Assembly: GCA_039028615.1 (NCBI GenBank)
Contig: JBCCHT010000016.1
Location: forward strand, 128,001-192,000
From: Myxococcota bacterium
Lineage (GTDB): Bacteria; Myxococcota_A; Polyangia; Nannocystales; Nannocystaceae
Length of the DNA: 64,000 bases
Direction of reading: 5' to 3'
This document shows, in pieces, positions 2,365 to 44,777 of the stretch. Under the pieces are notes generated by a model, which saw nothing but the letters and a program-made list of their open reading frames with translations, had not been told where the DNA came from and did not search any database. The translations under genes were made by a program, and so were the position numbers. The stretch's first letter is position 1. Each line of letters opens with the position of its first letter.

Positions 2365-2373
2365 GCCCGAGTA

Positions 2374-2444: not shown

Positions 2445-2461
2445 ATACTCGAAGGGAGGCG

Positions 2462-2477: not shown

Positions 2478-2510
2478 CTTAGTTCGGGTGTCCCACGGAC
2501 CAAGGAACCG

Positions 2511-3761: not shown

Positions 3762-3762
3762 G

Positions 3763-26701: not shown

Positions 26702-28411
26702 TCAGCGGGTCTCGGGAGTCATCGGACCTTCACCACCGTGCGTGTCGCGAATGTCCTGAGGCAAGTCGCGAGCAGCCACGATCTGCGTGAGCACATCGAC
26801 TCCCATCGTGGCCGTGCGTGCGTAGTCGCCTTCGTAGTCGACCGTGTACAGGCCGAAGCGAGGCTCGTAGCCCTCGGCCCACTCGTAGTTGTCGTACAGG
26901 CTCCAGTGGTAGTAGCCGCGGACGTCGGCGCCCTCGGAGCGCGCCCGCTCGATCGACTCGAGGGCGCGTACGATCGCCTCCGAGCGGCGCTGTCCTACCG
27001 CGGTGGCGATGCCGGACTCGGTCACCGTCATCGGCAGGTCGGGCCAGCGCGACGAGAAGTCGACCAGCCGCAGGTACAGCCCCTGCGGGTAGTGCTCGTA
27101 GTTCATCATCGGCACGTGATAGGTGGGGTCGAGCTCGGGCACGCACGCGCCTACGTCGATGCCGTTGAAGCACGGCGTCACGTTGATCAAGGGCAGCAGC
27201 CCGCTCGCCCCCGTGACCCCGGCGCGGAGGTAGTACTGCACGCCGAGCCAGTCGAGCGTGCCCGCCCACTCGGGGTGCGGCTCCTCGAGCTCGCCGTCGA
27301 GCCCGGGATCGAAGGCACCCTGGCGCAGGGACTCGATGAACAGCGAGTGATAGGCAAAGTCGACGCGCTCGACCGCGGCCAGGTCGTCGGGATCGTCGCT
27401 CAGCTGGTTGCCGCGTCCCGGCACCCACTCGATGGCGCCCTTGGTCAGGCCGACCACCGCGGCCATGCCATCACCGTCCGCGTCGATGGTGTCCCCCGCC
27501 TGCAGCGCGTTGTAGACCTCCACGTGCCCGGCGATGAAGTTGCGCGCGGCGGCGATGAAGGTGCCCTCCACGTCGGTGAGCAGCCCCTGCTTGCCCGGCG
27601 GGAACACGCCGAGCCCGTAGCCAGCGAGCAGGTAGTTGATGGGCTCGTTGAGCGTGACCCACTCGTCGACCCGGTCGCCGTAGCGCTCGGCCAGCAGGGC
27701 GGCGTGCTCCCCCAGCTCCTCGACCACCATCGGGCCGCCCTCGGTGTGGTTCCAGCCGCAGAGGTTCGCGTCGGTCGGTCCCGCCTCGCAGTCGGGGTCG
27801 CTGGGGTCGTCCACCCAGATCGGGTTGGAGAAGTGGTGCACCGTGACCATCGGGCGAATACCGGCCGCGAGCAGGGCGTCGATGAACGCGTCGTAGTGCG
27901 CGAGCGCGTCCTCGTCGATCATGTCGCGCTGCGGCTCGATGCGGGCCCACTCGATGCTGAAGCGATAGGCGTCCAGCCCCATCTCGCTCAGCAGCTCGAC
28001 GTCCTGCTGCGCCATGCTGAAGCCGCGCGACGCGTCGGCGATGAACTCCCCGTTGCCCAGGCCGCCCTCGGCGACGGGCAGGCTCCACAGGTACCAATCG
28101 ACCGACTCGTTCTGGTCTTCGATCTGGGTGGCCGCACTGGCGGCGCCGAAGCGGAAGCTGTTCTCGCCGTCGGGGCCGATCAGCGGGCCGAGCTCGCCGA
28201 AGCCCTCCATCGGCTCGCCGGAGCTGCTGCCTTGGGTCTCGTCGGCCACCGCGGTCTCGCTGCCCGCCGTGCCGTCGGTCTCGGCCACCGTCGTCGTCGC
28301 GTTGGTGGTGCTGCCCGCGTCCGAAGTCGTCGTCGCCGAGCCGTCGTCACCACACCCCAGGGTGCTCATCCCCATGAGCACCGAACCCAATGCTGCGCAA
28401 AATCGCTTCAT
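26702..28411 (-). CDS. Glycoside hydrolase family 1 lipoprotein
   Basis: FGAASAATQIE, YRFSIEWARIEP, TLNEP (acid/base), VTESG (nucleophile), WSLYDNYEWAEGY. Confidence 0.92.
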   Translation of the reverse strand: MKRFCAALGSVLMGMSTLGCGDDGSATTTSDAGSTTNATTTVAETDGTAGSETAVADETQGSSSGEPMEGFGELGPLIGPDGENSFRFGAASAATQIEDQNESVDWYLWSLPVAEGGLGNGEFIADASRGFSMAQQDVELLSEMGLDAYRFSIEWARIEPQRDMIDEDALAHYDAFIDALLAAGIRPMVTVHHFSNPIWVDDPSDPDCEAGPTDANLCGWNHTEGGPMVVEELGEHAALLAERYGDRVDEWVTLNEPINYLLAGYGLGVFPPGKQGLLTDVEGTFIAAARNFIAGHVEVYNALQAGDTIDADGDGMAAVVGLTKGAIEWVPGRGNQLSDDPDDLAAVERVDFAYHSLFIESLRQGAFDPGLDGELEEPHPEWAGTLDWLGVQYYLRAGVTGASGLLPLINVTPCFNGIDVGACVPELDPTYHVPMMNYEHYPQGLYLRLVDFSSRWPDLPMTVTESGIATAVGQRRSEAIVRALESIERARSEGADVRGYYHWSLYDNYEWAEGYEPRFGLYTVDYEGDYARTATMGVDVLTQIVAARDLPQDIRDTHGGEGPMTPETR

Positions 28412-28603
28412 CGTGCTGTCTTCCGTGCGGCGGAGCATTCCACGGAGGCATATCGAACGGGGAGGGGACGGTGAGAGGAACCGCTCGGGTGCGCGACGGG
28501 CGATGGGGGTGTTCGTTGTTCGGCGCGGCGTGACGCAGAGTCGAGGGATGGCGCACGAACGAGGGGCCCTCGGCGATGGCCCCCGAACCAGCGATCATAG
28601 CGT

Positions 28604-31099
28604 TCAATGACCGGTGGGCCAGGGCTCGAACGCTCCGCCACATGCCGCGGGGGTACCGATGGGGCTGCCTGGCGGAGGTTCGGGAGGCTCGACGATGGTG
28701 GGCGCGGGGTAGTGAGGCCGCGCGAGCCAACGCTCGCTACGCTCGGCCAACGCCGACGCGGCCGCTCGGGCGCGCGCCGAACCCGGTGTCCGTCGAGCCT
28801 CCCGGACGAGCTTGCGCAGGGCATCTTCGGCCAGCGCCCGCACCCGGGGGCTGGCCCCTGCATCGGCGCCGAGCTTCATCAGGTGATCGGCGAGTCCCCG
28901 CTGGACCATCTCTCGTCGCCGTCGATCCGCGGTGCTCGACCCCGCGGGCGAGGCGAAGGCCTGGTCGTGCACCTCGGCCAGCAACTCGGCGAACCCCAGC
29001 GTGGCCGGGTCTCGCTCGTGCGTCAGCTCGAGGCGATGGGCCCGGTGGCGCTCGAGCAGGACGTCCAGGCTCATGTCGATGGCCGCGGCCGCGAGCGCAT
29101 CGGGGTCGAAGGCCGCGCCCGCGTGGCTCGGCAGGGCATCGATATGCGACTGCGGGGTGGGGCGCATGAAGCCGAGAATTCGATCGGGCACGTGCAGGTT
29201 CTTGGGCTCGAGCGTCCGCAGCACGGCCTCGAGGGCACGGCGTTGGTCGGCATCCGGCACGGAGACCACGGGGGCGCTCGGGTCCGCCACCATCGAGTGT
29301 CGCTGGCCGCCGATGAGTTTGGCCGTCGCGGCCAGCTGATACCGATGGAAGAAGTACAGCGGCGCGAGCGTCAGCTCCAGCGCCTCGGGGGCCGCCCCGG
29401 GGGCCGAGCGGTCGGGGGCAAAGCGCTCGAGGGCGATCGTTCGTACCGCCAGCACCTCGAGCAGGGCATCGACCGAGTCCGAGCCGTTGTCCCAGACATT
29501 GGCCTCGGGATGCGCCGCTCCGGCGGCGTGGGTCTGGGCGTCGCTCAGGTGCAGCAGACCCTCGGCTTCGGCCTTCGTGCGCAGCGCCTGCAACCCCGTT
29601 TGCTCGGCGTTGGGGTCGTCCCACTCGCGGTACAGGTACTCGAAGGCCAGCCGGTCCCACGCACCCAGGCCGACGCCATAGGCCTCGGAGAGATCGAGCT
29701 TCGCGTCGCGGCCTTCGCCGACCACGTGCACCAGCGGCGCGGGGTAGTCCATCACCGAGGCGCGTCCGTAGGTGCTGGCGGCGAAGTTGTGCTCGAAGCC
29801 CAGCGTGTGGCCGACCTCGTGGGCCGCGAGCTGCCGGACCCGGGCCAGGGCGAGCTCGACCGGATCCTCGGAGCCTCCTCGGCCGCTGCCTGCGGCGCCC
29901 ACCAGGCTCTCGAAGATTCGCCGATCTTGGCGTACCCGCTGCGAGCCGAGGATGACGCTGCCGCGCACGATCTCGCCGGTACGCGGGTCGATGATCGGGT
30001 GCCCGAAGGACCACCCTCGCGTGGAGCGGTGCACCCAGTGGATCACGTTGTAGCGCACGTCCATCGGGTCGGCGCCCTCGGGGAGCAGCTCGACGTGGAA
30101 GCCATCGGGGAAGCCCGCCGCTGCGAAAGCCTCGCTCCACCAGGAGGCGCCTTCGATCAACGCGCTGCGCAGCGGCTCGGGCGTGCCGCGATCGACGTAG
30201 TAGACCAGCGGCTGCCCCGGGACCAAGCGGTGCCGCTTCGCCAGCCGACGCTCGAGCGGCTCGTGCAGGGCGCTCGAGAAGTCGAGCATGCCCAGGCTCA
30301 TGTGGCCCATGCGGGCGTGCGCCTCGCGGGGTCGAAAGCCGTCGTCGGGCAGTCGGACGATCGAGTGGTGCTGTCGCAGGGTGAGCACCTCGTCCTGCGG
30401 CGGCGTCGAGCTGGCCCAGCGCCCCGTCTCGTCGGCGTCGAAGGTCAGCGTGGCCTCGAGCTCGATGTTGTCCGGGTAGACGCCGAGCGCGTCCAGCTCG
30501 ACCACGCTGCGATCTGCCTGGAAGCTCCACTGACCTTCGTCGCCGTCGGCCAGGCTCCGCGCGACTCCGTGGGCATCCGAGACGATCAGGGCGGTGATGT
30601 CGACGAGCACCTGCGGCGAGCCGGGATCGCGGGCGACCACCGGTCCCGCCCAGACGAGCGAGGTGGGGAACGCATCGTCGGTGGACCGCGCTTCGTCGGC
30701 ATCACCCGATCCGGCGACGAAGTGGGGATTGAGGAACTCGAACACCGCCTTTTCGCCCACGACCCGAAGGCGGGCGAGCTTGGTCGAGCCGGTCTCCGAG
30801 CGGTCGAGCCCGGCCGGGTTCGCGCCCAGCCCACTGGCGAGCCCTTCCACGTAGAGGCAGTCGAAGGGCGCGGAGGCGTCGAGCTGCACGTAGACCCGGG
30901 CGGTCTGCTCGTCGACCCACACGGGCAGCAGCCCGGAGTGCTCGACCATGCCTTCGGTCGTCTCCGTCAGCGTGGGGAGCTCGTCCTCGTCGTCCGCGGT
31001 CGCACCGGGCAGCGGTGCTTCGAGCGGCTGGCGGCCTCGTTTCGCACAGGCGGCCAGGCTCAGCGCGAGCGCGGTGATGTAGAGCGAGCGACGGAGCAC
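28604..31099 (-). CDS. Metzincin zinc metalloprotease lipoprotein (EcxA/DUF4953-like)
   Basis: HEVGHTLGFEHNF plus Met-turn SVMDYP; DPRTGEI; lipobox LAAC after a GTG start at about 31099. Confidence 0.88.
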   Translation of the reverse strand: MLRRSLYITALALSLAACAKRGRQPLEAPLPGATADDEDELPTLTETTEGMVEHSGLLPVWVDEQTARVYVQLDASAPFDCLYVEGLASGLGANPAGLDRSETGSTKLARLRVVGEKAVFEFLNPHFVAGSGDADEARSTDDAFPTSLVWAGPVVARDPGSPQVLVDITALIVSDAHGVARSLADGDEGQWSFQADRSVVELDALGVYPDNIELEATLTFDADETGRWASSTPPQDEVLTLRQHHSIVRLPDDGFRPREAHARMGHMSLGMLDFSSALHEPLERRLAKRHRLVPGQPLVYYVDRGTPEPLRSALIEGASWWSEAFAAAGFPDGFHVELLPEGADPMDVRYNVIHWVHRSTRGWSFGHPIIDPRTGEIVRGSVILGSQRVRQDRRIFESLVGAAGSGRGGSEDPVELALARVRQLAAHEVGHTLGFEHNFAASTYGRASVMDYPAPLVHVVGEGRDAKLDLSEAYGVGLGAWDRLAFEYLYREWDDPNAEQTGLQALRTKAEAEGLLHLSDAQTHAAGAAHPEANVWDNGSDSVDALLEVLAVRTIALERFAPDRSAPGAAPEALELTLAPLYFFHRYQLAATAKLIGGQRHSMVADPSAPVVSVPDADQRRALEAVLRTLEPKNLHVPDRILGFMRPTPQSHIDALPSHAGAAFDPDALAAAAIDMSLDVLLERHRAHRLELTHERDPATLGFAELLAEVHDQAFASPAGSSTADRRRREMVQRGLADHLMKLGADAGASPRVRALAEDALRKLVREARRTPGSARARAAASALAERSERWLARPHYPAPTIVEPPEPPPGSPIGTPAACGGAFEPWPTGH

Positions 31100-31179: not shown

Positions 31180-31644
31180 TTAGCCTTCGACCCAGCCGTC
31201 GTCGGCCAAGGCCTTGCGGGCTCGCTCGAGCGCGGCGGAGGCGGCCGCGTCGTCGGAGAAACGCTCGGCGACCTCGGTCTTGAGCACGCCCCCGTCGACG
31301 CTCAGTCGAGCCTCGATAGTGCGGCCTCCGGCCGTGAATTTCATCGCTGCGGCGGTCGTCAGCTCGGCGTCGGGCACGACCGACAGCGCGGGAGCAGCGG
31401 GCGCCGAGCTGGCCGCCACGGCATCGCCGGCGTCGTCGTAGCCCTTGCGGCGCTTGGACCCGGAGACCTTGTCGAGCTCTTTGCGGGCCTTGGCCTCGCT
31501 GCCGAGCTCCTTGACCTGGGTCTGGCCGTTGGTGCCGATGCGGCCGTAGTTGACGTACAGCGTGCCGCCCTCGATCCGCGCGCGCCAGAACTTGCGCGAG
31601 CTTCCGTCGACGAGCTGAAGGCTGACTTCCCAGGATTCGCTCAT
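31180..31644 (-). CDS. Stand-alone WGR-domain protein, translationally coupled to the retron RT
   Basis: DGSSRKFWRARIEGGTLYVNYGRIGTNGQTQVK...KRRKGY is a WGR domain; its ATG overlaps the RT TGA (ATGA). Confidence 0.88.
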   Translation of the reverse strand: MSESWEVSLQLVDGSSRKFWRARIEGGTLYVNYGRIGTNGQTQVKELGSEAKARKELDKVSGSKRRKGYDDAGDAVAASSAPAAPALSVVPDAELTTAAAMKFTAGGRTIEARLSVDGGVLKTEVAERFSDDAAASAALERARKALADDGWVEG

Positions 31645-32975
31645 TGTGGCCCCCCGCCATCGGCGGCATCGCGAAGCGCGGCCGCTCGTTCGAGCAGGGC
31701 ACGACCCTGCGCGTGATCGGTCATGTGCACGTAGGCCGCAAAGCCTTGCAGTCGGTCGAGGGAATCGGGGCCGGCCTTGCCCTTGCTGCGGTTGTGCAGG
31801 GCCGCTCGCAAGATTCGCCGCAGCTTGCGGGGCACCCGAGCGGCGGCGATGGTCGTCTCGGTACCCTTGGTGGGCGCGTTGACGACCAGGCCCGTGACCT
31901 TCTGGCGACGCCCCGAACGCATGACGCGAGTCTTGGCGGGGTGCACCTTGAAGCCCTCGTTGGTGACGATGCTGCGCACCCGATGGAGCAGCTTGCCCAC
32001 GGGCGCTTCACCTTCGCCGTGCCAGGAGAAGGTCAGGTCGTCGGCGTAGCGCGAGTACTTGAAGCCGAACTTGTTGGCCAAGCCCTGCATGCGCCGGTCG
32101 AGGCGAAGGCACAGAGCGTTGGTGATGGAGGGGCTGGTCGGGGCCCCCTGGGGCAGCGAGCGCGGGCCGATGGCCACGTGGTGCGGCTTGCCGCGGATCT
32201 CGATTTGCTCGCGCGGGGACTCGGTGCACAGCAGGGCCAGGATGGTGGCCACTTGCTCGCCGTAGCCCGCCTTGCGCATCAGGCCCTTGACCCGAGCCAG
32301 CGTGATGGTGGGGTAGAAGTCTTCGAGATCGAGCTTGATGATCACCGCGCCGCCGGCATGGACCGCGGCGTTGGTGACCGTGCTGCGGCCGGCGACGAAG
32401 CCGTGGGCCGAGCCGTGCACGGGAAGGTGCTCGGTGATGTTGCGGGCGATCCACCGCTGCGCCGCCTTGAGCTGGGGCTTGGGCGCGCTGATGAGCCGCA
32501 TGCCCCCGCTGCGCTTGGGCACGTGCCAGCGGTGATAGTGCGTGCCGGAGTCGACCTCGCGGTGGTAGACGAGCCAGCGCAGGCGCGGCATCGGCATCTC
32601 GAGCGCGGCGGCCAGCTCGGTGGCGTTGGCCAGCTTGGGCAGCGCGTTGTCTTGGCGCCGGCTGTCGATGTCGGCGATGTCGTGGCGATCGACGTCGGGC
32701 GTGTCGTGATAGAAGACGCCCGCGCCGACGTGCACGAGGTTGTTGCGACGGTACTCGGCCCAGGCGTGGCGACGCAGGACCTTGCGGACGCGGCGTTCTT
32801 CCTCGCGACGGGCCTTGTATTTCTTACGCTCGCGGTCGCTGAGCGTGGTGGTGTCGACGCCCTCCTCCCACAGTCCGCGGGCCTGAAGCTCGGCCACCAC
32901 CCAGGCATCGATGCCGCCGGCTTCGGCGATTTCGGCCCAGGGAGGGAGCGCTCGTTCGGAGGTCGCGTCGGACAT
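31641..32975 (-). CDS. ret: Retron reverse transcriptase, Mx162-like
   Basis: Region X NAAVH, KLDLEDFYP, LPQGAPTSP, YSRYADDLTFS, region Y QKVTGLVVN; myxobacterial N-terminal extension WAEIAEAGGIDAWV...HVGAGVFY; msr/msd upstream. Confidence 0.95.
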   Translation of the reverse strand: MSDATSERALPPWAEIAEAGGIDAWVVAELQARGLWEEGVDTTTLSDRERKKYKARREEERRVRKVLRRHAWAEYRRNNLVHVGAGVFYHDTPDVDRHDIADIDSRRQDNALPKLANATELAAALEMPMPRLRWLVYHREVDSGTHYHRWHVPKRSGGMRLISAPKPQLKAAQRWIARNITEHLPVHGSAHGFVAGRSTVTNAAVHAGGAVIIKLDLEDFYPTITLARVKGLMRKAGYGEQVATILALLCTESPREQIEIRGKPHHVAIGPRSLPQGAPTSPSITNALCLRLDRRMQGLANKFGFKYSRYADDLTFSWHGEGEAPVGKLLHRVRSIVTNEGFKVHPAKTRVMRSGRRQKVTGLVVNAPTKGTETTIAAARVPRKLRRILRAALHNRSKGKAGPDSLDRLQGFAAYVHMTDHAQGRALLERAAALRDAADGGGPQ

Positions 32976-33014
32976 GGAAGGGGAGCGAAGAAAGGAGAGA
33001 GTCGGGGAGCGTCA

Positions 33015-33045
33015 CCGCCGGTCGGGATGAATCCCGAGCCGGCGG
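33015..33045. other. GC-rich hairpin between the retron inverted-repeat arm and the RT start
   Basis: CCGCCGG-TCGGGAT-GA-ATCCCGA-G-CCGGCGG. Confidence 0.7.
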
Positions 33046-33318
33046 GGAAAGGGAACCGAGACGCTACTTCTTGACATGGGACACGGTAGGCTCACCGGTT
33101 TGTGGTACGGAGGGGGTCCTAGCGACTGGGTTGAACGACGGTTGCGTGGTTGATCCAGATAACCCGGTCGCTAGGACCCCCTCCGTACCTGACAAACCAC
33201 GAACAGCCTACCTTGTGGAGTAATGCTCTGATGTTAGACCGGGGCGGCGCAGCGCCGCCCGTGTGCAAGCACGTGGCTAACGAACTCGGTTCCCTCTCCT
33301 CGCGACTCGAAAAGTCGT
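33046..33318 (-). ncRNA. msr-msd: Retron msr-msd non-coding RNA
   Basis: a1/a2 arms 33046-33060 / 33285-33299 (11 perfect bp, extending to 15 with a G-U) plus CGUUA/UAGCG pairing; candidate branching G at 33277 in UAGC; msr hairpin GGGCGGCGC-A-GCGCCGCCC 33242-33260; msd stems 33085-33092/33205-33212, 33097-33103/33192-33198 and 33104-33132/33161-33189. Confidence 0.92.
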
Positions 33319-33324
33319 GGCGCT

Positions 33325-33353
33325 ACGCTAGCGATCCTGTGCGGTGGTGTCAA
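33325..33353 (-). promoter_or_regulatory. sigma70/sigmaA-type promoter of the retron ncRNA-RT-WGR unit
   Basis: Minus strand TTGACA (33353-33348), 17-nt spacer, TAGCGT (33330-33325); predicted +1 at about 33318. Confidence 0.75.
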
Positions 33354-33387
33354 CGCGATCGCAGGGGTGCATGGCGACAAATTCGGT

Positions 33388-33456
33388 AGAAAAAACGGGG
33401 GGCTTCGGCGGGCCGCGAACGCACGTAGACACGCGTCGCCCCACGGCCCGAAGGCC
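33388..33456 (-). terminator. Possible terminator after the three large upstream genes
   Basis: Long imperfect GC hairpin (33401-33456) followed on the minus strand by CCCCGTTTTTTCT; the spacing is atypical. Confidence 0.4.
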
Positions 33457-33510
33457 GCGAACAAGGGGTGACCACGCGAACAGTTCGCTCGGTTTTGGTG
33501 GGTCGAAAGG

Positions 33511-35328
33511 CTAGGGGCTCTCGGCTGCGCTGGCGTCGATGAAGCCCTTGGACGACAGCGCGTGCAGGCGACCGAAGTACTCGGTGCTCGCCTCTTCGGG
33601 GGTGGAAAAGAGCAGCCTCTGCATGCGCAGAGTGTCCGGGCGTGGGCCCCATCGGACGGTGACCTGGCGGTGGTCGAGGCTGACGCGATAGGTGACCGAG
33701 CCCTTCCGATCGCGGCGGACGAAGGTGCGGGTCTCGGCTCGGATGAGTCGGCGCCCCTCTTCGGTGTTTCGGGCGCGCTCGAGCTCAGCTCGCTGCCGGG
33801 CGTAGAGCAGGCGCAGGGCGATCATGGGGACGGTGGGTCCCTCTCGTAGACCGCTGCGACGGAACTGCGGGCTGGTGCACGAGGCATCGACGGTTCGGCC
33901 CTCGCGGTCGAGGGTGAACGAAGTCTTGTAGCTACGGTGCGCCTGCGGGTCCTCGATCTCGCCTTCGATCTTGGTGCCTTCGGAGCCTAGGTCGTGGACG
34001 CGCGTGAGCTTCACGGCCCCCTCGGTGTCGAGCAGACGATGCGCCTCGGCCTCGCGGGCGTCCCGGAAGCGCAGGGCCTCGGGATCGGGCGGGGTGGCGA
34101 GCAAGGGGCGATGCACGAAGCGGCGCTGGGCGACGTCGTGCAGCACCAACCCCAGCTGCATGTGGTGCAGCAGGGCGGGGCGCACCTCGGTATTCGATCG
34201 TCCCGTCGCCTCGGCCAGCTCGGCCATGGTCTTGGGGCCTTCTTTCAGCAGCTCGATCACCTTGCGGTTGAGCAGCTCGTCGGGCTCGCCCGCGTCGAGC
34301 AGGTCGAAGGTGGCGATGCCGGCCCAGCCCGCGTCGGTCCACCCGGAAAGCGCGAGGGTCAGCTCGGCGTCGCCGAGGTCGAGCACGTAGAAGGCGGGCA
34401 GCCCCGGGCCCACGAGGTGGATCTTAACGGAGCGAGCGTGCGGCAGCAGGCGGGCGAGCACCGACAGGCGCTTGCGACCCCAGGTGCGCACGACCATCGG
34501 CATCGAGCCCTCGTAGACCTCGCCCGTGGACTCGATGACCTGCTCCCAGGGCTCGAGCACGAGGCGGGGGCGCTCGCCCGGGACCAGCTCGTAGCGCAGC
34601 GCCCGAGGGGACTTGCGAGCCCGACGCTGCCGCAGGGTCAGCAGCAGGTTGTACAGGTCGACGGGCGCGAGCTCGAAGCTCCGCAGGGGCAGGGTCGATG
34701 CGGACTGCACCTGACCGAAGGCCCGGATCCATCGCAGTGGGACGACGAAGCGTTGCTCGTCGCTCTCGTCTTGGGCGCTGGGCGTGAACTCGAGGGTCGA
34801 GTTTCGGTACGAGCGCAGCCGGCCGAGCGCGGCGAGAAGCTGGGGCCCCAGGCGCAGGTGCGAAGTGCCGGCCTCCATCGTGCCCGCCTCGTAGGCGCCG
34901 CCCGACTTGAGCCACAGCCGGGCGTAGGCGGACTCGTCCGCGGAGAACACCTCGAGGCTCAGGCCTCGCTCGTCCACGCTCAGCACGGGATCGAGGGGCG
35001 CTTCTTCTTGGGCGGCCTCGCCGTACTTGGCGGCGAGGAAATCACGCTGCGCGTTCCAGACCTCCTGGGTGACCCGCTTGCCCTGGGCGAGCAGGTAGGC
35101 GAGGTAGTCGGCGCGGCTGCGGGGGCGGAAGCGAAGATCGCTGGTGAGGATCTCGCCCATGGTGAGCAGGGCGTCGCGGACGACCCCCGGGCGCTCGAGC
35201 TTCGCCACCAGGCGGCAATCGGCGCGGATGCCATCGGTGGGGATGCGTAGGCGGAAGCTGTCGCCCTCGGCCACCGGATCGGTGGCGGGGGCATAACGGA
35301 CGCGGACCTCGGCGGTTTGGCTCGTCAT
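33511..35328 (-). CDS. Retron-associated winged-helix / degenerate SWIM / WGR-like protein
   Basis: LDPVLSV...EVFSADESAYARL, WIRAFGQVQSA and LALSGWT resemble SWIM-family proteins found with ARM-repeat genes; wHTH-like GPKTMAELAEATG; SWIM-position CTSPQF...GPTVPM; C-terminal VTVRWG...LSSKGF. AAGGA RBS before ATG 35328. Confidence 0.75.
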   Translation of the reverse strand: MTSQTAEVRVRYAPATDPVAEGDSFRLRIPTDGIRADCRLVAKLERPGVVRDALLTMGEILTSDLRFRPRSRADYLAYLLAQGKRVTQEVWNAQRDFLAAKYGEAAQEEAPLDPVLSVDERGLSLEVFSADESAYARLWLKSGGAYEAGTMEAGTSHLRLGPQLLAALGRLRSYRNSTLEFTPSAQDESDEQRFVVPLRWIRAFGQVQSASTLPLRSFELAPVDLYNLLLTLRQRRARKSPRALRYELVPGERPRLVLEPWEQVIESTGEVYEGSMPMVVRTWGRKRLSVLARLLPHARSVKIHLVGPGLPAFYVLDLGDAELTLALSGWTDAGWAGIATFDLLDAGEPDELLNRKVIELLKEGPKTMAELAEATGRSNTEVRPALLHHMQLGLVLHDVAQRRFVHRPLLATPPDPEALRFRDAREAEAHRLLDTEGAVKLTRVHDLGSEGTKIEGEIEDPQAHRSYKTSFTLDREGRTVDASCTSPQFRRSGLREGPTVPMIALRLLYARQRAELERARNTEEGRRLIRAETRTFVRRDRKGSVTYRVSLDHRQVTVRWGPRPDTLRMQRLLFSTPEEASTEYFGRLHALSSKGFIDASAAESP

Positions 35329-35345
35329 CGTCGGGTGTCCTTGAA

Positions 35346-38300
35346 TCAAGCGGAGGCGAAGCTCTCGGCGCGCGCGTGTTGACGTTGAAGACGACGCAGG
35401 GCCCGGTAGGCGGCCTTGCGTACGGGTTCGGGCTCACTGCTCTGCGCCAGGATCCCCTCGAGGGTCTTGCGGGCGTCGTCACCACCGAGGCGGCCGAGGC
35501 TGCCGATGGCGGTGAGGCGTCCCGCGCCCTTGCCCGAGGTCTGGGCCAGCGTGGTGAGCGACTCGACCTTGCGATCGCCGAGCACGGTCGGCAGCAGCAC
35601 CGAGCGCGAAGCATCCGAGGCGAGTAGCTTGTCGGCGTCGCGCTCCAGCGCGGCCGCGGCCACCGGAGCGATGGCGGCGGCATCGGCCACGGTCTGCGCC
35701 CCGAGGACCTTGGGGGTCTTGTCGGGGGCGCGGGTCGAGACCAGCTGGGCCGCGGCCCGTCGCACTCCGGCATCGGGGTCGCTCAGCAGGTCCTGGGCGG
35801 CTTTGACGTCGGAGTCCTTGCCGTGCGTGGTGAGCAGGCGGAGCGCTTCGCGTCGAACGAAGGGCGGGGCCTCGGCTTGGGCCACGGCGATGCGAGCCGC
35901 GTCTTGTCCGACTTCGCCGAGCCGACGCGAGGCCCACAGACTCGCTCGCCAGGCTGCGGCATGCGAGGCCAGCGTGGCGCGAGACTGGGCGTCGTCACCG
36001 AGGGCGGCGCCGTGGGCCTTCACCCAGGCATCGGCCGCTCGCTTGGCCGCGGTGGCCACGTCCTTCGCGAGGGCATCGTGGCCGCTGGCTCCCGCGATCC
36101 AGGCGGCGTCGGCCCGGGCGGTGTCGGAATCGCCGGTCAGCAGGGCGCGGACCGAATCGTCCGGGCACTCGCCGCGCCGGACCAACCCGCGACGCAGGCG
36201 GCGACGGACGTCCGCGTTGTCGATCTCGCCCATGCGCGCGACCAGGGTGACCGAGTCGCCGTGCCGCGCGAGGAAGGTGGCGGCCGGAGCCGAGATGTCG
36301 GCGTGGCGGCTGCGAAGCGCGAGCAGGTTGGTGCGCGTACGCTCGGTGCTGAAGAGGCGACCGAGCGCCTTGGCGGCGGCTTGGCGGACCTGACGGTTGT
36401 CGTCGTCCAGGGCCTCGGCCAGCACCGACTCGGAGGCGGTCTCGCCGAGCTCGCCGAGCTCGCGGACCGAATGCAAGCGGACCGAGGCGTCTTCGAAGCG
36501 ATCGGCCAGCGCCGCCTCGAGCACGCTGCGGCTGCGCTCGTCCCCGGCGTAGCGCAGCCCGGTCAGCGCCCGGGTGCGCAGTCGCGAGGAGCCTTCGCGG
36601 GCGGTTTGCTCGACCAAGTCGCGGATCCGCTGGTGTTCGTCTTGCTCGCCGAGGTGCGGGAGCATGCGTCCCAGCGACTCGATGGCCGCGGGGGCCAGCG
36701 CCCGATCCTCGTCGGTGATCTCGGCGTCCGGATCGAGCAGTGGCTCGATGTCTTCGAGTGCTCGGCGGTCGCCCAGCGTGCCCAGGGCCAGCAGAGCGCG
36801 TTCACGCTCGGGTTGCTCGGCGGCCTTGAGCACCAGCAGCAGCGCCTGGAAGGCCTCGGGGCGGCGCCGTCCGGCCAGGCCGGCGGCGGCGGGCAGCACC
36901 AGCTCGCGTCGACCCTCGCGCAGGGCGATGGCCAACGCTTCGAGCGAAGCGCCTTCGACGTGCTCGGCTCGGAACGCGAGCGCCTCGCAAGCCGCGACCC
37001 GAATCTCGGGCGAGCGATCCTCCAGCAGCCGGGCCAGCAGCGGCTCGGCCCCCGCATCGTCGACGTCGCGAAGGACGGTGACGGTGCGATTGCGAAGGTC
37101 TTCGTCGGAGCTGAGGGCGGAGCGCTCGAGGTAGGCCAGGGCCTGCGCATCGTCGTAGCGCAGTCGCTTGCCCCCGGTCGCCAGCTTGCGCGGCCCCTCG
37201 GTGGGGTGCGTGGCCAAGGTCATCAGGGCATTGAAGGCCCGCAGGCGAATCGCGGAGTCGTCGTCGGTCAGGAGCGAAAGCAGTACGCCTTCGCCGGCCT
37301 TGCTCCCGATGCGGGCGAGCGCATCGATGAGCCCGCCGCGGTTGGCCGTCTTGTCCGGGTCGTCCTCGATGCGAGCCGCCACCGCTCGGGCCGCGGCGTC
37401 GCGGGCCTTGTCGGCGTTGGGCTCATCGGGGCGGGCATGCGCCAGGGCGACCAGCGACTGCAGGGCCCGACGAGCGATGCGCTCCTCTTCGCGGCGCAGG
37501 AACGCCGAGAGCACATCGACGGTGCGGGCCTCTCCGCGGGAGGCGAGGGCCTCGGCCGCGCGCAGGCGCAGATCTTCGTGGTCGCTCTCGAGGGCGCGAC
37601 GCAGCGCCTCGTCGACCCGGGGGTCGCTCGAGTCCACCAGGCGATCGACGACCGACAGGCGCACGTCGGTGTGCCGGCTGCCCAGCGCGACCAGCCACGG
37701 CTCGAGGCTGCCGCTCTCGAACAGACGCTGGATCACGGTGACCGCATGGCGGCGGACCTCGGCGGCGGGAGCATCGACGGCCCGCAGCGCCAGCGCATGG
37801 GCCTCTTTGTGCCCGCCCAGCGCGAGGCCGACCAGCTCGTCCACCGCACCGCGGCCGACGTCGGAGGCCTGCGACTGCAGAGCCAGACCCAGGGGCACGG
37901 TGTCGCCGTCACTGTACAGCCCACGCAAGGTGGTCAGGGCGGCCTTGCGGACGAGGTGATGCGGATCGGAGAGGGCGCGGCGCAGCACGGGAAGCACCGC
38001 GGGGCGTCCGACCTCGGGGCGCTTGGCCAGCACGCCGAGGCGAGCGAGGGCATCGCGGCGGACGCGGTGGGTCTCGTCCGACTCGCCGCGGGTGGGCGCC
38101 TGTCGAACCAGGCCGACGTAGGTGCCGAAGACCAGCTGCACGATCGCGGCGCGGTCGATGGGAGCATCGGACGCGGGCGGAGCGGCCTGGGGCCGCGGCC
38201 CGCCGACGAAGCGCAGGACCTCGAGCACGCGCTCGGTGAGCGTGCCCGCACCGTCGTCACGGACTTGCTCGAGCAGTCGCCGGACCCAGCCACGCTTGCG

Positions 38301-41300
38301 GGGTTGCCGGTCCTCGGTCTCCCAGTTGGTCGCGGGGGCATCGGGCTTGGTGGCCTCGGTGGGCGCACGCAGTCGCTTGAGCTCGCGCCAGAAGCTCTCC
38401 GGCTGCGGTCGCAGGGACAGCACCCGGGCGGCGGCGTAGCGCTGGGCCGGATCGTCGCTGGCCAGCACGGCGACCAGCACGTTGAGCAGGGCGTCGCGCT
38501 CCTTTTCTTCGGGCCACTTCTTGAGCTCGGAGGCGCGGTCCGGCTTGGGCGGCCCGACCAGCTCCTGCGCCAAGGGCCCCAGGGTCTGGGCCGAGTCGCG
38601 GGCTTCGAGGGCCCGGGCGGCGACCAGGCGAATCTCGGGATGCGAGGACGCGATCGCGGCGAGCAACAAATCGGGCGGCAGATCGACGCGGGCCAGCGCC
38701 AGGTCTCGGGCGACCACGACCGCGAACACCAGGTCTTGGATCTGGCGGTCGTCGTCCTCGAGGCCCTGCAGGATGCCGCGGATGCCATCGGCCCCCAGGG
38801 CGACGAAACTGAGGATCGCGCCGAGGCGGATGGGGTGATGGTGATGCCGCAGGGTACCGGCCAGTACGGGCACGGCCCGGGCATCGCCCATGCGCGCGAG
38901 GCCCTCGGCGACCCAGCTGCGCACGGGCAGATCCGGGTGCGACAGCGCGGTGACCAGCGGGCGCTCCTGGCCGGGCACGACCGCGCCGGCCAAGCCACGG
39001 GCCCCCATCTCGCGAACCACTCCGTCGGCGTCGTCGAGCAGGGTCACGTAGTCGGCGATGGCATCCACCGCGCCCACGTCGGCCATGGCCCGAGCGCCTT
39101 GCTGCCGCAGCGTGTCGGAGGGGCGATTGATGTCGCCTTCGGGGATGGCCAGCAGCGCTCGCATCGGCGCGATGGCTCGGTCGTCGCGACGCTTGCCGCA
39201 CAGCTCACCCGCCCGCACGCGCAGCCCCCAGAACTTGCTGGAGAAGGCGGTATTGAAGGCGGCCTGATCCTTGGGCGCGAGCTTGTCGATCGCCTCGATC
39301 GCGGCCAGGTGCACGGCGGGCGCCTCGTCCTCGAGCAGCTCGACCAGGCGACTGCGGAGTTTGTCGGCGCTGCCCTTCTTGGCGCCCTTGCAGCCCGCCG
39401 CACGCACGGCCGGCCGCGGCGAGCCCAGGGCGAGCAGGTGCACGGCATCGTCGGCGGCAAAGGCCTTCTTGCGGGTCTTGCTCTTGCCGTCGATCAGCGC
39501 CTTGTAGGCCGCCAGACCCACGTCGGCCACGGCATCGGAGATCAGCTCGCGCAGCAGCGTGTCGGCCCAGTCTCCCTTTTGACGATCGAGCTCGTCGGCC
39601 ACCCGCTCGCGGATGTCGGCGTGTCGCGACTGAGCGGCGCGGCGCAGGACGGTCTCGGGCGACTTGCCGTGCCACGCCCACAGGGTGCGGAAGGCTTCGC
39701 TGCGCACCGAGTCGTCTTCGTCGTCGAGCGCATGGCCGAGCAGGACGTCGGCTTGTTCGCGAGTCCGCCCGCCTTGTCCCGGGCCGAGTTTGACCAGGAT
39801 CTGCAGGGCTCGACGTCGGATGTCGGCGTGCCCACCACCGAGCGCGGTCGCGGCCAGAGACACGGCGCCACGCTCCCCGTCGGGCTCGGCGAGGGTCTGT
39901 AGCGCTTCGTAGGCCGCCGAGCGCACGGAATCGTCGGTGTCGTCGAGCAGCCAACGCAAGCGAGTGCGCAGGCGCTCGTCGCCGGCCATCACGGTGGCGG
40001 TGGCCACCAGGGCGCCCACCACTTCGCGACGGACGGAGGAATCGGCCTCGCGCGACAGCTGGAGCAGGGCACCCGTGGAGCGAGCGTCCCCCAGTACGCC
40101 GAGGCCCCGAGCGCCGCGCAGCGCGGTGTCGGCATTGCGGCAGACCAGCGCGGCGAACAGCGGCGCGAGATCGTCTTCGTCGGGCGTGCCCTCGAGCGCG
40201 GGGTTGGGCCCGAGCGCGCCCTCCTTCTCGAGCTTGACCATCGAGGCGTGCAGCCGCGTGTCGACCCGTCGCAGGGCGCCAGCCAGCGTGGGCCGCCCGG
40301 CAATGGCGACCAGGAAGGCCACCCGACGCACCTCGGAGTCTTCGTCGTCCAGCGCCTCTTCGACCAGCGCATAGCCTTCGCCGTCGCGGGCCAGCCCGCG
40401 CGAGCCGAGGCGGCGCAGGGTGGTGGCTCGCACGTCGGCGGGGCCTCGGGCCAGCGCCGTACGGGCGGGCTCGAGCGAGGTCTCGGGCTCGAGGCTCTCG
40501 AGGGCTTCGAGCGCGGCGTGGCGGACCTTGGCTTCGCCGTCCTGCAGGCGGTCGGCGATCATCGCCGGGACCATCGGGGAGACGTCGCGCAGCTTGGGCA
40601 GCCGCCGCAGGGCCTCGATCCGAATGCCGGCGAAGCGAGAGCCGAGCGCGGCTCGGGCCGGAGCGAGGGGCTCGTCGGCTTCGAGCTTGGTCAGCGCCTC
40701 GAGGGCGACCTTGCGGACGTCCTTTTGCTTGTCGTTGAGCGCCTCACGCAGGGTGGGCCGGCTACGACGTCGACCCGAGCGCCCGATGATCTTGGCGGCC
40801 AGCGACCGCACCTCGGGCTTGTCGTCCTTGCGCAGCGCCTTGTCGAGCATGCGCCGCGCGTCGTCCTCGGGCAGCGACCCGAGGGCTTCGAGCGCGGCCT
40901 GCCGGGCCTTGGGGCTGCGGGCCTTGAGCTCGTCGCGAAGCTGCGCGAAGCGGCCGTCGACGCGATCGAAGTCTTCGTCGATCTCGCTGTTCGCGTTGGC
41001 GGTGAGCACCGTCAGGCGGCGCTTCTTGTCGGCGACCACGAGCAGGCCGCCCTGCTTCTCCGGCTTGGCGCGGGAGCCGGGGGGCAGCCAGGTCAGCGCA
41101 CCCAGCCCGGACTTGCCGATCTCGAGGCTCTTGGGCTTGCGCCGCGTATCGAGCTGCCACGACTTGAGGCTGCCGTCGTCGCTGATCGAAAAGATTCGCT
41201 GCGGTCGCTCTTGCCCGTGGTCGTCGCGCAGCCGCGGCCCCAGCACCAAGCCACGAACGGCGCCGTCGTGCCCGGCGTCTCCGGAGCGGTTCTCCTCGTC

Positions 41301-41972
41301 GACCGCGCCGTCCAGGTAGTAAAGACGCACGGAACCATCGCCCGCGCCCGCGACGACTCGCCCGTCATCGGTGGCGACCAAGCTGTAGACCCCGCCTTCG
41401 GCCCCCGGCATGTCGCGGAGCGTGCCGCCCTCGACGTCGTCCATGGGCAGCGCCCGGAGCACGCTGTCGTCGCCCGAGACGATGAGCCGTCGTCCGTTGG
41501 GCTCGATGGCCGCGCACTGCAGGGGTCGCGCGCTGACCTGCCGCGAGCCCTTGGCCTTCAGCGCGGGCGTGGCCGACTCGACGGTCAGCTCGAACACGTG
41601 CACGCGACCGTCCTGGGTGGTGACCACCAGGTGTTTGCCCGTGGTGTCGCGCGCGAACGCGGTGACCGGGCTGCCGAGCTTGGGCTCGGAGAAGCGCAGG
41701 TCTACCGACTCTTTGCCGACCTCGATCCCGTACAGCGTGCCGTCGATGCCGCCCGCGACGAGTAGATCGTCGGCGAGGAAGCTCAGCGCGGCGATGGCCG
41801 AGCCGACCTCGACCGCGGCCTGCTCGGTGAGCTTGGTCGAGGACAGGATGTGAACGCTGGAACTCGAGACGGCGTCCGTGTCACGGGCCCCGGCGTACGC
41901 GAATAGACGGCCGGATAGCGAGCCCGTCACGGCTCGTACCCGCTCTACGTGGGAAGCGAATTTGCGAGTCAT
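35346..41972 (-). CDS. Giant WD40 + HEAT/ARM-repeat protein (2208 aa)
   Basis: First ~335 aa WD40-like (SGDDSVLR, GAGDGSVRLY, GHDGAVRGL, SISDDGSLKSW); the rest is many LxDxxxxVRxxA HEAT repeats. Confidence 0.88.
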   Translation of the reverse strand: MTRKFASHVERVRAVTGSLSGRLFAYAGARDTDAVSSSSVHILSSTKLTEQAAVEVGSAIAALSFLADDLLVAGGIDGTLYGIEVGKESVDLRFSEPKLGSPVTAFARDTTGKHLVVTTQDGRVHVFELTVESATPALKAKGSRQVSARPLQCAAIEPNGRRLIVSGDDSVLRALPMDDVEGGTLRDMPGAEGGVYSLVATDDGRVVAGAGDGSVRLYYLDGAVDEENRSGDAGHDGAVRGLVLGPRLRDDHGQERPQRIFSISDDGSLKSWQLDTRRKPKSLEIGKSGLGALTWLPPGSRAKPEKQGGLLVVADKKRRLTVLTANANSEIDEDFDRVDGRFAQLRDELKARSPKARQAALEALGSLPEDDARRMLDKALRKDDKPEVRSLAAKIIGRSGRRRSRPTLREALNDKQKDVRKVALEALTKLEADEPLAPARAALGSRFAGIRIEALRRLPKLRDVSPMVPAMIADRLQDGEAKVRHAALEALESLEPETSLEPARTALARGPADVRATTLRRLGSRGLARDGEGYALVEEALDDEDSEVRRVAFLVAIAGRPTLAGALRRVDTRLHASMVKLEKEGALGPNPALEGTPDEDDLAPLFAALVCRNADTALRGARGLGVLGDARSTGALLQLSREADSSVRREVVGALVATATVMAGDERLRTRLRWLLDDTDDSVRSAAYEALQTLAEPDGERGAVSLAATALGGGHADIRRRALQILVKLGPGQGGRTREQADVLLGHALDDEDDSVRSEAFRTLWAWHGKSPETVLRRAAQSRHADIRERVADELDRQKGDWADTLLRELISDAVADVGLAAYKALIDGKSKTRKKAFAADDAVHLLALGSPRPAVRAAGCKGAKKGSADKLRSRLVELLEDEAPAVHLAAIEAIDKLAPKDQAAFNTAFSSKFWGLRVRAGELCGKRRDDRAIAPMRALLAIPEGDINRPSDTLRQQGARAMADVGAVDAIADYVTLLDDADGVVREMGARGLAGAVVPGQERPLVTALSHPDLPVRSWVAEGLARMGDARAVPVLAGTLRHHHHPIRLGAILSFVALGADGIRGILQGLEDDDRQIQDLVFAVVVARDLALARVDLPPDLLLAAIASSHPEIRLVAARALEARDSAQTLGPLAQELVGPPKPDRASELKKWPEEKERDALLNVLVAVLASDDPAQRYAAARVLSLRPQPESFWRELKRLRAPTEATKPDAPATNWETEDRQPRKRGWVRRLLEQVRDDGAGTLTERVLEVLRFVGGPRPQAAPPASDAPIDRAAIVQLVFGTYVGLVRQAPTRGESDETHRVRRDALARLGVLAKRPEVGRPAVLPVLRRALSDPHHLVRKAALTTLRGLYSDGDTVPLGLALQSQASDVGRGAVDELVGLALGGHKEAHALALRAVDAPAAEVRRHAVTVIQRLFESGSLEPWLVALGSRHTDVRLSVVDRLVDSSDPRVDEALRRALESDHEDLRLRAAEALASRGEARTVDVLSAFLRREEERIARRALQSLVALAHARPDEPNADKARDAAARAVAARIEDDPDKTANRGGLIDALARIGSKAGEGVLLSLLTDDDSAIRLRAFNALMTLATHPTEGPRKLATGGKRLRYDDAQALAYLERSALSSDEDLRNRTVTVLRDVDDAGAEPLLARLLEDRSPEIRVAACEALAFRAEHVEGASLEALAIALREGRRELVLPAAAGLAGRRRPEAFQALLLVLKAAEQPERERALLALGTLGDRRALEDIEPLLDPDAEITDEDRALAPAAIESLGRMLPHLGEQDEHQRIRDLVEQTAREGSSRLRTRALTGLRYAGDERSRSVLEAALADRFEDASVRLHSVRELGELGETASESVLAEALDDDNRQVRQAAAKALGRLFSTERTRTNLLALRSRHADISAPAATFLARHGDSVTLVARMGEIDNADVRRRLRRGLVRRGECPDDSVRALLTGDSDTARADAAWIAGASGHDALAKDVATAAKRAADAWVKAHGAALGDDAQSRATLASHAAAWRASLWASRRLGEVGQDAARIAVAQAEAPPFVRREALRLLTTHGKDSDVKAAQDLLSDPDAGVRRAAAQLVSTRAPDKTPKVLGAQTVADAAAIAPVAAAALERDADKLLASDASRSVLLPTVLGDRKVESLTTLAQTSGKGAGRLTAIGSLGRLGGDDARKTLEGILAQSSEPEPVRKAAYRALRRLQRQHARAESFASA

Positions 41973-41981
41973 GGGCGAATG

Positions 41982-44777
41982 TCAGGAGGCGGCGAGGGAA
42001 CCGAAGCGGCGGCGGGAGGAGGTACGAACCGGAGTCGTGCTCGGCGACAGGCTCGTGCCGAAATCGGGGTGGGCGCGGCGGATGCTGGCCAGCGCGGCGA
42101 TGCAGCCGTTGCGCTCGCCCTTGCCCTCGGAGTGGGCGAAGGCCTCGAGCACGGGCAGGGCGAGGTCGGCGAAACCCCGGTCCTCGATGCCGAAGTCGCG
42201 GATCACCTCGATGAGCCGGGCCTTGGCGACCGAAGAGGGCAGCGGGCGATCGGGCAGCGAGTCCCCGCCCTGGTGCTCGCGTCGCTCCATGCGTCCGGGC
42301 GGCAACCCGAACAAGACCGTCCGCAGGAACTCGCGCAGGGCCTCGGTGGTGTCGAAGCGTCGCTCGGCGGGATCGGGCGCGGGCGTGTCGTCGGCCGGGG
42401 TCACGTAGGCGTTGGGCCGGTGCTTTTCCCACAAGAGGCGCACGGCAAAGAGCCGGACCTCGCGGTCGGGGCTCTCCATGAGCCAGGCCAGGCGCTCGGC
42501 CCCGCCGACCTGCTGATAGGCGCGACGGATGAGGGTCAGGCCGATCTCCCGCGTCGACTTGATGGAGCTCTCCGCCAGCATGAAGACCTGGTCGGGCAGC
42601 AGCCACTGTGCGGGCGGGGCGTCCTCGGGCGCGTCGGGCTGAGCCAGGCGCAGCAGCACTCGGCCGGCAGCGGCCCGTGGCTCGCGGTGGCGGCTATGCG
42701 CCAGCCGGTAGGGCAGGGTCTCGTCGCCCCAGCGGACCATCTCGTGGCGGGCGATGTCCTGGGCGAGGCGGCGCACATCGGAGCGGCCGTCGTCGAACAG
42801 CGGTCGCACCCGGCCGATGGCGTAGTCGGCGTGCTTGAGCCGCGGCTTGATGCCGTAGTCCTTGGCCTCCTGCATCGTGGGGCCCGCGATGGGGTGATGC
42901 ACCCGCAGGTAGGTCCCCGCGAAGGCTCGCACCGTCTCCGGCTCGGACGAGCCCGAGGCCAGCGACCACAGCTTGTCGAGCCCGGTCTGCTCACCCGTGG
43001 CGCCGAAGTCCTTGGGCGAGAAGTGCTCGAGCATGTAGCGGTGGGCGAAGCCGTTGAGGCTCTCGTCGGCCTGCCGCACCATGGTCAGCAGCCAGGGCAG
43101 GCCGACCTTGGCCGGCTTGACGAACTTGGGGTTGCCGAGCACGTCCAGGGCCATCGCGCGCAGTCGCGGTCGCATGACTAGGCCCTTCATCCACTCCACG
43201 TCGAGGGCATCGCCCTTGAGCATCCCGCCTCGCAGCCAGCGGCTGACCCAGTCGGTGTACTTGTGGTTGAGCAGGGCCTCCTTGATCCACTCGATCCCGA
43301 TCTGCGAGCCGGGGTAGCGGCCGAGGCTTCGCAGCACCTCGCTCTGCTTCCAGCGGGACAGTCGCTTGTCCTCGAGCAGGGCAAGCCAGTGCTTGGCGGG
43401 GATCTTCTTCTTGGCCTCGTCGTAGAGCTTGGTGACGAAGCGCTGCTGCTCGCGGTTGCCCGTCCACAGCACGATGAACGACTCGGCATCGATGTCGTCG
43501 GGGCCGAAGGTGGCCTTGATCTTCTTGGCGGCCATCTTGGCCGTCTCGCTGCCGCCGAGCAGCCGCACCAGGGCGGGCAGGCCCAGCTCGCGGGCGTCGC
43601 GGGAGCCGAGGCGCTCGGCGGCGAGCTTGCGCACCTCGGACGCACCCTCGGTGGCCAAGCTGACCAGCATCTCCACCGACAGGTCGGGGGCATGGTTGCG
43701 GGCGTACTCGATGGCGAACTTGCGGGCGTCGCTGCTCTCGGACCGCAGCAAGGAGACGGCCAGGTCGTGCAGGCCGAGCCCGGCGAGCTTCGAGGGGTGG
43801 AAGCGCGGGTCGTCCTTGAGCACCTTGGCCACGAAGTCGTGCACCGAGGCCAGGGGCTTGGCGCCGAGGCGGGCCAGCCAGGCCGGCTCCACTTCGCGCA
43901 GGGTCTTGGGAAAATCGCCGGTCAGGCAGCGGATCGCGAATTGGCAGACCTCGTTGTTGTCCGCGTCCTCGAGCAAGCGCAGCACGGGATCGGGCGAGAG
44001 CTTCCAGGCCTTGGGGTAGGCGCGCTTCTTGAGGTCGGTGGGCGGGCGGCCCAAGCCGCCGCGGCCCTGGCCGCGCAAAATCTCGTGGCCCCAGATCTGG
44101 CTGGCCACCCACGAGGCCCAGAAGTTGAAGCGACGCGGGTAGCGACGCAGCACCTGCACGGCGAACTGCGGGTAGGCCTCGGGCACCGCGTTGCCGAGCT
44201 GACGCAGGTATCGCCACGCCCGACGCTGCATATAAAGGAAGGTGCCGGGGCTGACCTCACCGGACTTGGTGGGCGTCTGGCCCATCGAGTCGAGGCGCCA
44301 GGCGATGACGCCGAACATCTCCGCGTCGTGGCGCTCTTCAGCGAGCTTGTAGACCTGCTTGAGCCCCTGCCATAGGCCCCAGCCCACGCGAGCGCGGGTG
44401 AAGATTTCCTCGAGCGCAGCGCGGGCGGGCTCGTCTCCGGCTTCGTACAGCTCGACGAGCAGCGGTCCCAGGCGCAGGCGTGGCGGGGGATGAGGGGCGG
44501 CGAGCAACGAGTCCCACGCCGACTTGCGGATCGATCGCTGCTCGTCCGCGGGCTTGTAGGTCAGCCTCCCGCCGCCGACCGTGCTGCGCAGACGCTTGAG
44601 CGTCCATGCATCCCGCGACAACGCGGGGACCGACGCACTGGGGTCGGCCGTCTCGTCTCGATCTTCGGGAGGGTCGGCCTGATCCATGTAGCGGATCACC
44701 AGCTCGGCGAGCTGGGGATCGCGCTGTTGTGCCGCGCCCTCGATATCCGTCCAGGTGACCTCACGCTCGCTCGCCAT
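41982..44777 (-). CDS. Large helical-repeat (ARM/HEAT-like) hypothetical protein, first gene of the retron-linked block
   Basis: 931 aa; TFLYMQRRAWRYLRQLG, DVRRLA, ESPDREVRLFA; 9 nt from the downstream HEAT gene. Confidence 0.75.
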   Translation of the reverse strand: MASEREVTWTDIEGAAQQRDPQLAELVIRYMDQADPPEDRDETADPSASVPALSRDAWTLKRLRSTVGGGRLTYKPADEQRSIRKSAWDSLLAAPHPPPRLRLGPLLVELYEAGDEPARAALEEIFTRARVGWGLWQGLKQVYKLAEERHDAEMFGVIAWRLDSMGQTPTKSGEVSPGTFLYMQRRAWRYLRQLGNAVPEAYPQFAVQVLRRYPRRFNFWASWVASQIWGHEILRGQGRGGLGRPPTDLKKRAYPKAWKLSPDPVLRLLEDADNNEVCQFAIRCLTGDFPKTLREVEPAWLARLGAKPLASVHDFVAKVLKDDPRFHPSKLAGLGLHDLAVSLLRSESSDARKFAIEYARNHAPDLSVEMLVSLATEGASEVRKLAAERLGSRDARELGLPALVRLLGGSETAKMAAKKIKATFGPDDIDAESFIVLWTGNREQQRFVTKLYDEAKKKIPAKHWLALLEDKRLSRWKQSEVLRSLGRYPGSQIGIEWIKEALLNHKYTDWVSRWLRGGMLKGDALDVEWMKGLVMRPRLRAMALDVLGNPKFVKPAKVGLPWLLTMVRQADESLNGFAHRYMLEHFSPKDFGATGEQTGLDKLWSLASGSSEPETVRAFAGTYLRVHHPIAGPTMQEAKDYGIKPRLKHADYAIGRVRPLFDDGRSDVRRLAQDIARHEMVRWGDETLPYRLAHSRHREPRAAAGRVLLRLAQPDAPEDAPPAQWLLPDQVFMLAESSIKSTREIGLTLIRRAYQQVGGAERLAWLMESPDREVRLFAVRLLWEKHRPNAYVTPADDTPAPDPAERRFDTTEALREFLRTVLFGLPPGRMERREHQGGDSLPDRPLPSSVAKARLIEVIRDFGIEDRGFADLALPVLEAFAHSEGKGERNGCIAALASIRRAHPDFGTSLSPSTTPVRTSSRRRFGSLAAS

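Follow-up and report, generated by a model that had tools for sequence, protein, structure and literature searches.

A type XIII retron locus of a Myxococcota bacterium with a small fifth WGR gene and a partner protein predicted to adopt a sliding-clamp fold

A retron locus lies on the minus strand of the stretch analysed here, 64,000 nucleotides (nt) of a Myxococcota bacterium of the family Nannocystaceae (contig JBCCHT010000016.1, positions 128,001 to 192,000), which we call the window and in whose coordinates positions are given. The host genome spans 12.3 Mb at 96.7% completeness, and the most similar named proteins belong to Paraliomyxa miuraensis (86%) and Enhygromyxa (65%). Five minus-strand open reading frames (ORFs) make up the locus, with host-like GC content at the codon positions and an even, likewise host-like GC content throughout. 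The first two encode a 931-residue HEAT/ARM helical-repeat protein (41982..44777) and a 2208-residue HEAT-repeat protein that begins with a WD40 propeller at about residues 1-280 (35346..41972). The third encodes a 605-residue partner protein (33511..35328), the fourth the 444-residue retron reverse transcriptase (RT; 31641..32975) and the fifth a 154-residue WGR protein (31180..31644). Gaps of 9 nt and 17 nt separate the first gene from the second and the second from the third, the start of the fifth gene overlaps the RT stop in the letters ATGA, and the non-coding RNA (ncRNA) of the retron precedes the RT gene. A sequence-only reading of the window by a model had described this arrangement of co-oriented genes around an intact ncRNA, and both the ORF coordinates and the ncRNA fold bear it out.

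Profile matches make it all but certain that the locus is a type XIII (Mx162-like) retron, and the sequence-only reading was correct in this assignment: the type XIII models of PADLOC match the RT, the partner and both HEAT proteins. The RT scored 520 bits against RT_XIII and 310 bits against the next PADLOC model (the class is assigned by profile, our tree containing no named Mx162 or Ne144 sequences). It carries an N-terminal extension and intact motifs, NAAVH at residue 202 (region X, NAxxH), YADD at 310 and VTG at 360 (region Y). The partner matched SWIM_XIII with an E value of 1.1e-146 over model positions 2-505 of 509, and is a homologue of cluster 114_1, the winged helix (WH)-SWIM proteins. 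Both repeat proteins matched HEAT-ARM_XIII models, the 931-residue protein PDLC02921 (E 1.7e-264, residues 6-905 on model positions 2-865 of 869) and the 2208-residue protein PDLC02919 (1434 bits over residues 1-2203). In the available part of the 2020 classification by Mestre et al. (PMC7736814), type XIII is defined by its RT clade, by a WH-SWIM protein for which a DEDE motif is proposed, and by a single HEAT gene or sometimes two; the two-gene layout of clusters 259_1 and 1688_1 is already described there, and calling the present locus an expanded version with two repeat scaffolds was therefore overstated. The further statement that the five-gene composition is uncharacterised holds for one gene, the other four and their order being in print: only the small WGR gene looks uncatalogued, and the Mestre 2020 supplement may list it. 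The class itself is already catalogued, 143 type XIII candidates being termed an expansion of a known type in the accessible portion of the SPIRE survey (PMC13712802), and the novelty is the fifth gene together with the degenerate motifs described below. A literature search that left subscription journals mostly outside its reach returned no mechanism or phage phenotype for type XIII, in agreement with the sequence-only reading that none is established.

The 535-nt gap before the RT gene contains the msr-msd ncRNA (33043..33302, minus strand), recognised by fold, covariation and motif comparison. Its fold has a z score of -11.6, with none of 200 shuffled sequences equally stable, and compensatory changes occur in 31 of the 81 predicted pairs across nine aligned loci. 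Repeats a2 (33299-33285) and a1 (33060-33046) and a branch G within (T/C)AGC, the features by which retrons are recognised, are present; the branch G lies at 33277 in TTAGC, and the site reads TTAGC or TCAGC in 72 of 74 copies. An msr stem-loop (33260-33242) is followed by the msd rod, whose arms (33189-33160 and 33133-33104) flank a 26-nt loop. Rfam returned no matches. When copies were pooled from all loci under a pattern that permitted 60-130 nt between two conserved boxes, the box-to-box distance was 94-95 nt in 67 of 69 distinct copies, the remaining two giving 93 nt and a masked 66 nt. The 30-base-pair (bp) stem, about three helical turns, is 96% Watson-Crick paired, with an identity of 0.44 in the arms and 0.87 in the loop (66 scored copies). 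Judged from these copies, the predicted rod is fixed in length and pairing and free in sequence, with a conserved loop and base, and the multicopy single-stranded DNA (msDNA) is estimated at about 160 nt, its 3' end being itself an estimate. One 272-nt contig from a marine metatranscriptome falls wholly on 33032-33302 with two differences; its ends and strand are unseen and DNA carry-over is possible. The 16-nt ncRNA motif has one further exact match (G000:C4:30170-30185), which has no ncRNA context and is probably due to chance.

In front of the ncRNA lies a predicted sigma-70-like promoter site, TTGACA-17-TAGCGT (33325..33353, minus strand), which a stricter scan had overlooked. Sites of the form TTGACA-16 to 18-TAnnnT precede 28 of the 60 copies that are not in tandem and none of the 14 tandem copies, against 0.5% in shuffled sequences. 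Because this promoter-like site is conserved, the five genes need not share one transcript, and the ncRNA, RT and WGR gene probably form a transcription unit of their own.

The start of the partner (ATG at 35328) agrees with the database protein P0007, which also has 605 residues. An AlphaFold2 model was obtained with a predicted local distance difference test score of 91.2 and a predicted template modelling score of 0.91, and the model and fold searches point to a PCNA-like N-terminal half. Residues 39-336 (34321..35214) are predicted to form the two-domain sliding-clamp fold of PCNA and beta clamps, with a helical insert at about residues 63-110, followed by winged-helix, SWIM-like (residues 421-515; 33784..34068) and WGR-like (residues 525-605; 33514..33756) domains; weak helix-turn-helix matches fall at residues 350-400. 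Arginines are conserved on all four clamp helices, the predicted counterparts of the DNA-facing helices of known clamps, and may lie on the corresponding face. Probabilities from hhalign between partner and clamps were under 3%, and the positive controls were likewise low (DnaN-PCNA 3.3%, DnaN-gp45 0.1%). No publication that connects a retron partner with a clamp fold turned up in our literature search.

The description of this protein as WH/SWIM/WGR in the sequence-only reading survives in part, the modules being recognisable and the fold still SWIM-like, but only one of four zinc ligands is kept and the N-terminal half is the predicted clamp fold. C484-S486-T499-P501 stand in place of the C-C-C-H ligands of the zinc-binding SWIM finger (CxCx12CxH), which weakens the label of SWIM zinc finger and not the membership of cluster 114_1. 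The DEDE motif of that cluster, Dx7[D]x4Ex30-32Dx37E, misses the partner as a regular expression, its residues being D113-R121-E126-R159-E191. In the available text of Mestre 2020 (PMC7736814) such partners are proposed as DEDE nucleases of the IS256/Mutator-like kind, a role as effector that we consider very improbable here: although D113 and E126 are near invariant, and the outer clades retain D-D-E-D-E together with C-C-C-H, the joint loss of the two hinting at a metal function that they shared ancestrally, the present copy carries R121 and R159, and the predicted clamp fold encloses four of the five motif positions. Since the zinc ligands and two acidic residues are lost in this lineage, the partner is probably a binder and not an enzyme.

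Such a binder might serve the RT itself. Herpesvirus UL42 and UL44 serve their own polymerase as processivity factors, and the partner could likewise act in processivity or maturation by helping the RT through the GC-rich 30-bp hairpin. This strikes us as improbable, given that it leaves the fixed rod length, the conserved loop and a scaffold of 3100 residues unexplained, and that RT and ncRNA suffice in other retrons according to the accessible portions of published reports.

Pfam assigns HEAT_2 repeats to the 931-residue protein, and 17 HEAT_2 matches together with WD40 and propeller families to the 2208-residue protein. Residues 107-408 of the former also match WGR_XIII PDLC02973 (9.5e-41), and invariant polar residues cluster in it, for example at 134-192 and 814-903. 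As the sequence-only reading stated, no nuclease, NADase or transmembrane domain is recognisable: Pfam and PADLOC gave no match to a nuclease or NADase family, the HEAT proteins being covered by sequence profiles only, where a hidden domain is possible, and no transmembrane segment is present (highest 19-residue hydropathy 1.62). These proteins are where a classical retron toxin-antitoxin arrangement would have to place its toxin, with RT-msDNA neutralising it and the clamp fold as adaptor. We regard this as unlikely, even though it follows the general logic of retrons as described in the accessible literature and the invariant polar clusters of the HEAT proteins, known by sequence profiles alone, would suit it; PADLOC and Pfam give repeats only, transmembrane segments are lacking, and in a sister clade these proteins occur where no neighbouring ncRNA was found. 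Myxococcus xanthus mutants without msDNA are viable and are not known to show a clear phenotype, which would speak against a plain toxin-antitoxin pair; the literature searched gave only a general statement on missing phenotypes.

Conservation beside homologous RTs, which the sequence-only reading had supposed, holds. The WH-SWIM gene adjoins the RT in 19 of 20 loci fetched from the 28 RT matches outside this genome, and all five genes are under purifying selection, with dN/dS values of 0.13-0.36 when compared with orthologues from the same genus and the lowest value in WH-SWIM. The product of the small WGR gene comprises a WGR domain (residues 1-75), a flexible linker and a second, weakly WGR-like module (95-154), and matches PADLOC WGR_XIII only at E 0.009. 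The complete five-gene order recurs in five relatives (L002, L003, L004, L006 and L030), four genes without the WGR gene in others (L007, L009-L012, L014 and L032-L037), and gene order is contig-limited in three loci that end early (L001, L005 and L008). Full-length WGR orthologues occur in 8 of 73 genomes of the order, each directly after a close RT orthologue. Scanning GTDB for the motif produced 46 loci, of which 35 remained once 8 without the RT end and 3 duplicates were dropped; the position after the RT holds the WGR gene in 21, an ncRNA copy in 11, neither in 3 and both in 0. Among metagenomes, 18 of 25 loci remained by the same criteria (7 dropped), with the WGR gene after the RT in 11 by rule (12 with L152, which has a one-base overlap), arrays in 3, and one locus too short. 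In a quick maximum-likelihood tree of 55 rows, whose careful search is incomplete and in which the labels for L113 and L115 are without data, carriers of the WGR gene are scattered through a clade of 36 rows (SH-aLRT 97), whereas an Enhygromyxa/Plesiocystis clade of 11 rows (100) lacks it. The small WGR gene is a real but optional member of the system.

In that Enhygromyxa/Plesiocystis clade, the place of the WGR gene is occupied by msr-msd arrays. Two to four units occur in Enhygromyxa salina SWB005, SWB007 and DSM 15201, in Nannocystaceae ST9 and in several metagenome contigs, with one RT each; L080:2501-3600, L081, L095, L110, L114, L138, L149 and L156 are array loci of this kind. The units lie mostly 3' of the RT at a spacing of about 300 nt; the arms are particular to each unit and the 30-bp rods differ, loop and base being alike. 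Of 25 units in 8 arrays, 23 have a 5' flank whose best pairing is with the 3' flank of that unit, a few by small margins, as expected of separately usable templates. Some array-bearing relatives have lost the ncRNA copy before the RT. No natural msr-msd array was found in our literature search. Several copies are odd in other ways: the second array unit at L076:2794 is chimeric, with non-pairing rod arms from different copies, through recombination or misassembly; one genome outside the Enhygromyxa clade (L113 and L079) has the ncRNA motif after both the SWIM gene and the RT, possibly an independent duplication; and one Polyangiales chromosome carries two solo msr-msd copies 62 kb apart (L086:2501 and L099:2501), neither an RT nor a SWIM gene lying within 2.5 kb of them. 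In a second type XIII-like clade (L015-L017 and L019) the RTs terminate in a long, Pro-rich linker with a KK-x-WW/FW-K-L/I-F-like tail, and a 476-residue WGR protein comes after the RT in L019.

Elsewhere in the window, a co-oriented gene with an HEVGH zinc-protease-like motif follows the WGR gene (about 28400-31000, minus strand); blastn did not find it beside the loci of relatives and it is not counted in the system. What we take, by translation, to be an RtcR/RtcB/RtcA RNA-repair cluster lies at 751-4815, 26 kb from the retron, and no tRNA was found in the 64,000 nt.

We tentatively favour the msDNA as a decoy duplex that holds a clamp mimic as an anti-phage tripwire. A vertically kept RT would make the msDNA of about 160 nt, with its 30-bp, sequence-free rod, behind the conserved promoter-like site. 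The rod might then carry the clamp-fold partner, with the loop or the ends gripped by WGR modules, among them the small fifth protein as an optional accessory, and with the HEAT/WD40 repeat proteins as scaffold. At its weakest steps, a phage replication protein or nuclease would mistake the complex for clamp-loaded DNA and disturb it, and the freed clamp mimic would block DNA replication. A more elaborate form, in which the RT writes a three-turn dummy duplex, HEAT/WD40 scaffolds load a PCNA-like ring, WGR modules read the ends, phage replication proteins trigger the response and the Enhygromyxa/Plesiocystis arrays multiply the decoys, is speculative and less likely.

Several observations weigh against the decoy proposal. 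The phage-triggered replication block is a guess, because we found no domain with a toxic or catalytic output, and none of the five genes resembles a clamp loader. With 39 K+R and 36 D+E, the clamp region has almost no net charge, and extra N-terminal strands (residues 5-31) could cap a ring-forming edge in the model. A 12-row sister clade (L009-L014 and L032-L037) keeps the RT, both HEAT genes and the partner; the SWIM gene abuts an intact RT there, and its product has an intact acidic motif and all zinc ligands. The fetched DNA around these genes revealed neither a comparable ncRNA nor a long hairpin, and the partner can thus persist without an adjacent rod. The compared loci are kin, overlap between sets and were chosen by the ncRNA motif. 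Finally, fixation of the RT extends over entire genera (5/5, 5/5, 7/7, 11/11 and 11/11), an upstream neighbour is common to 2 of 7 loci tested, and the ncRNA motif occurred in 0 viral contigs, a pattern that mobile defence genes do not typically show.

The large msDNA-containing complex supposed in the sequence-only reading is a possibility, and its role may be defence or damage sensing. Fixation throughout genera makes domestication more plausible here than in other retrons, and a DNA-maintenance machine ranks close behind the decoy reading. It would work where DNA is broken or forks stall in the large genomes of myxobacteria, with the msDNA as storage dock or rheostat, and we hold it possible though doubtful. 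Every recognised module is of a repair type (PCNA/9-1-1, PARP-type WGR, SWIM), the RT is fixed genus-wide in mostly larger genomes with host-like GC content, vertical inheritance is described in the available part of the published work, and neither PADLOC nor Pfam found an effector domain. Against it stand the 10 of 17 genera of the family without a match at E 1e-40, a broad and scattered distribution in the phylum according to the accessible part of the literature, and the occurrence of paralogues and accessory turnover.

The classical msDNA of Myxococcus, known since 1984, belongs to type XIII, and the Mx162 family was the first retron found. The predicted clamp fold and the fixed-length, free-sequence rod make a decades-old question of function directly testable, this lineage can serve as a naturally catalytic-dead control where DEDE/zinc activity is proposed, and the free 30-bp rod and natural ncRNA arrays of relatives bear on retron engineering. 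As far as the available part of PMC7736814 describes the type (RT clade 10; Retron-Mxa1 (Mx162), Mxa2 (Mx65), Sau1 (Sa163) and Nex2 (Ne144)), our locus is alike in the RT N-terminal extension, the cluster 114_1 partner, the upstream HEAT layout of 259_1 and 1688_1 and vertical inheritance, and the Mx162 msDNA, given as 162 nt in the accessible portion of PMC6868368, compares with about 160 nt estimated here. Our locus differs in a small tandem-WGR gene coupled to the RT stop, in a partner with C-S-T-P ligands, a D-R-E-R-E acidic motif and a predicted clamp rather than transposase-like fold, and in a sister clade that carries msr-msd arrays. With the anti-phage retrons Eco2, Eco7, Eco8, I-A, III-A3 and IX, as partly available reports describe them, it shares an RT, an ncRNA, dedicated partners and msDNA as scaffold and sensor, whereas those systems are patchy and have an enzymatic or toxic effector, none being recognisable here. 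Unlike the WGR proteins PARP1/3 and Bacteroides 2ra8, the locus has no ADP-ribosyltransferase or ligase domain. Compared with PCNA, 9-1-1 and beta clamps and viral processivity factors, the partner has 7-17% identity, a helical insert and extra N-terminal strands, and it fuses WH, SWIM-like and WGR domains to the predicted clamp fold in a locus with no loader.
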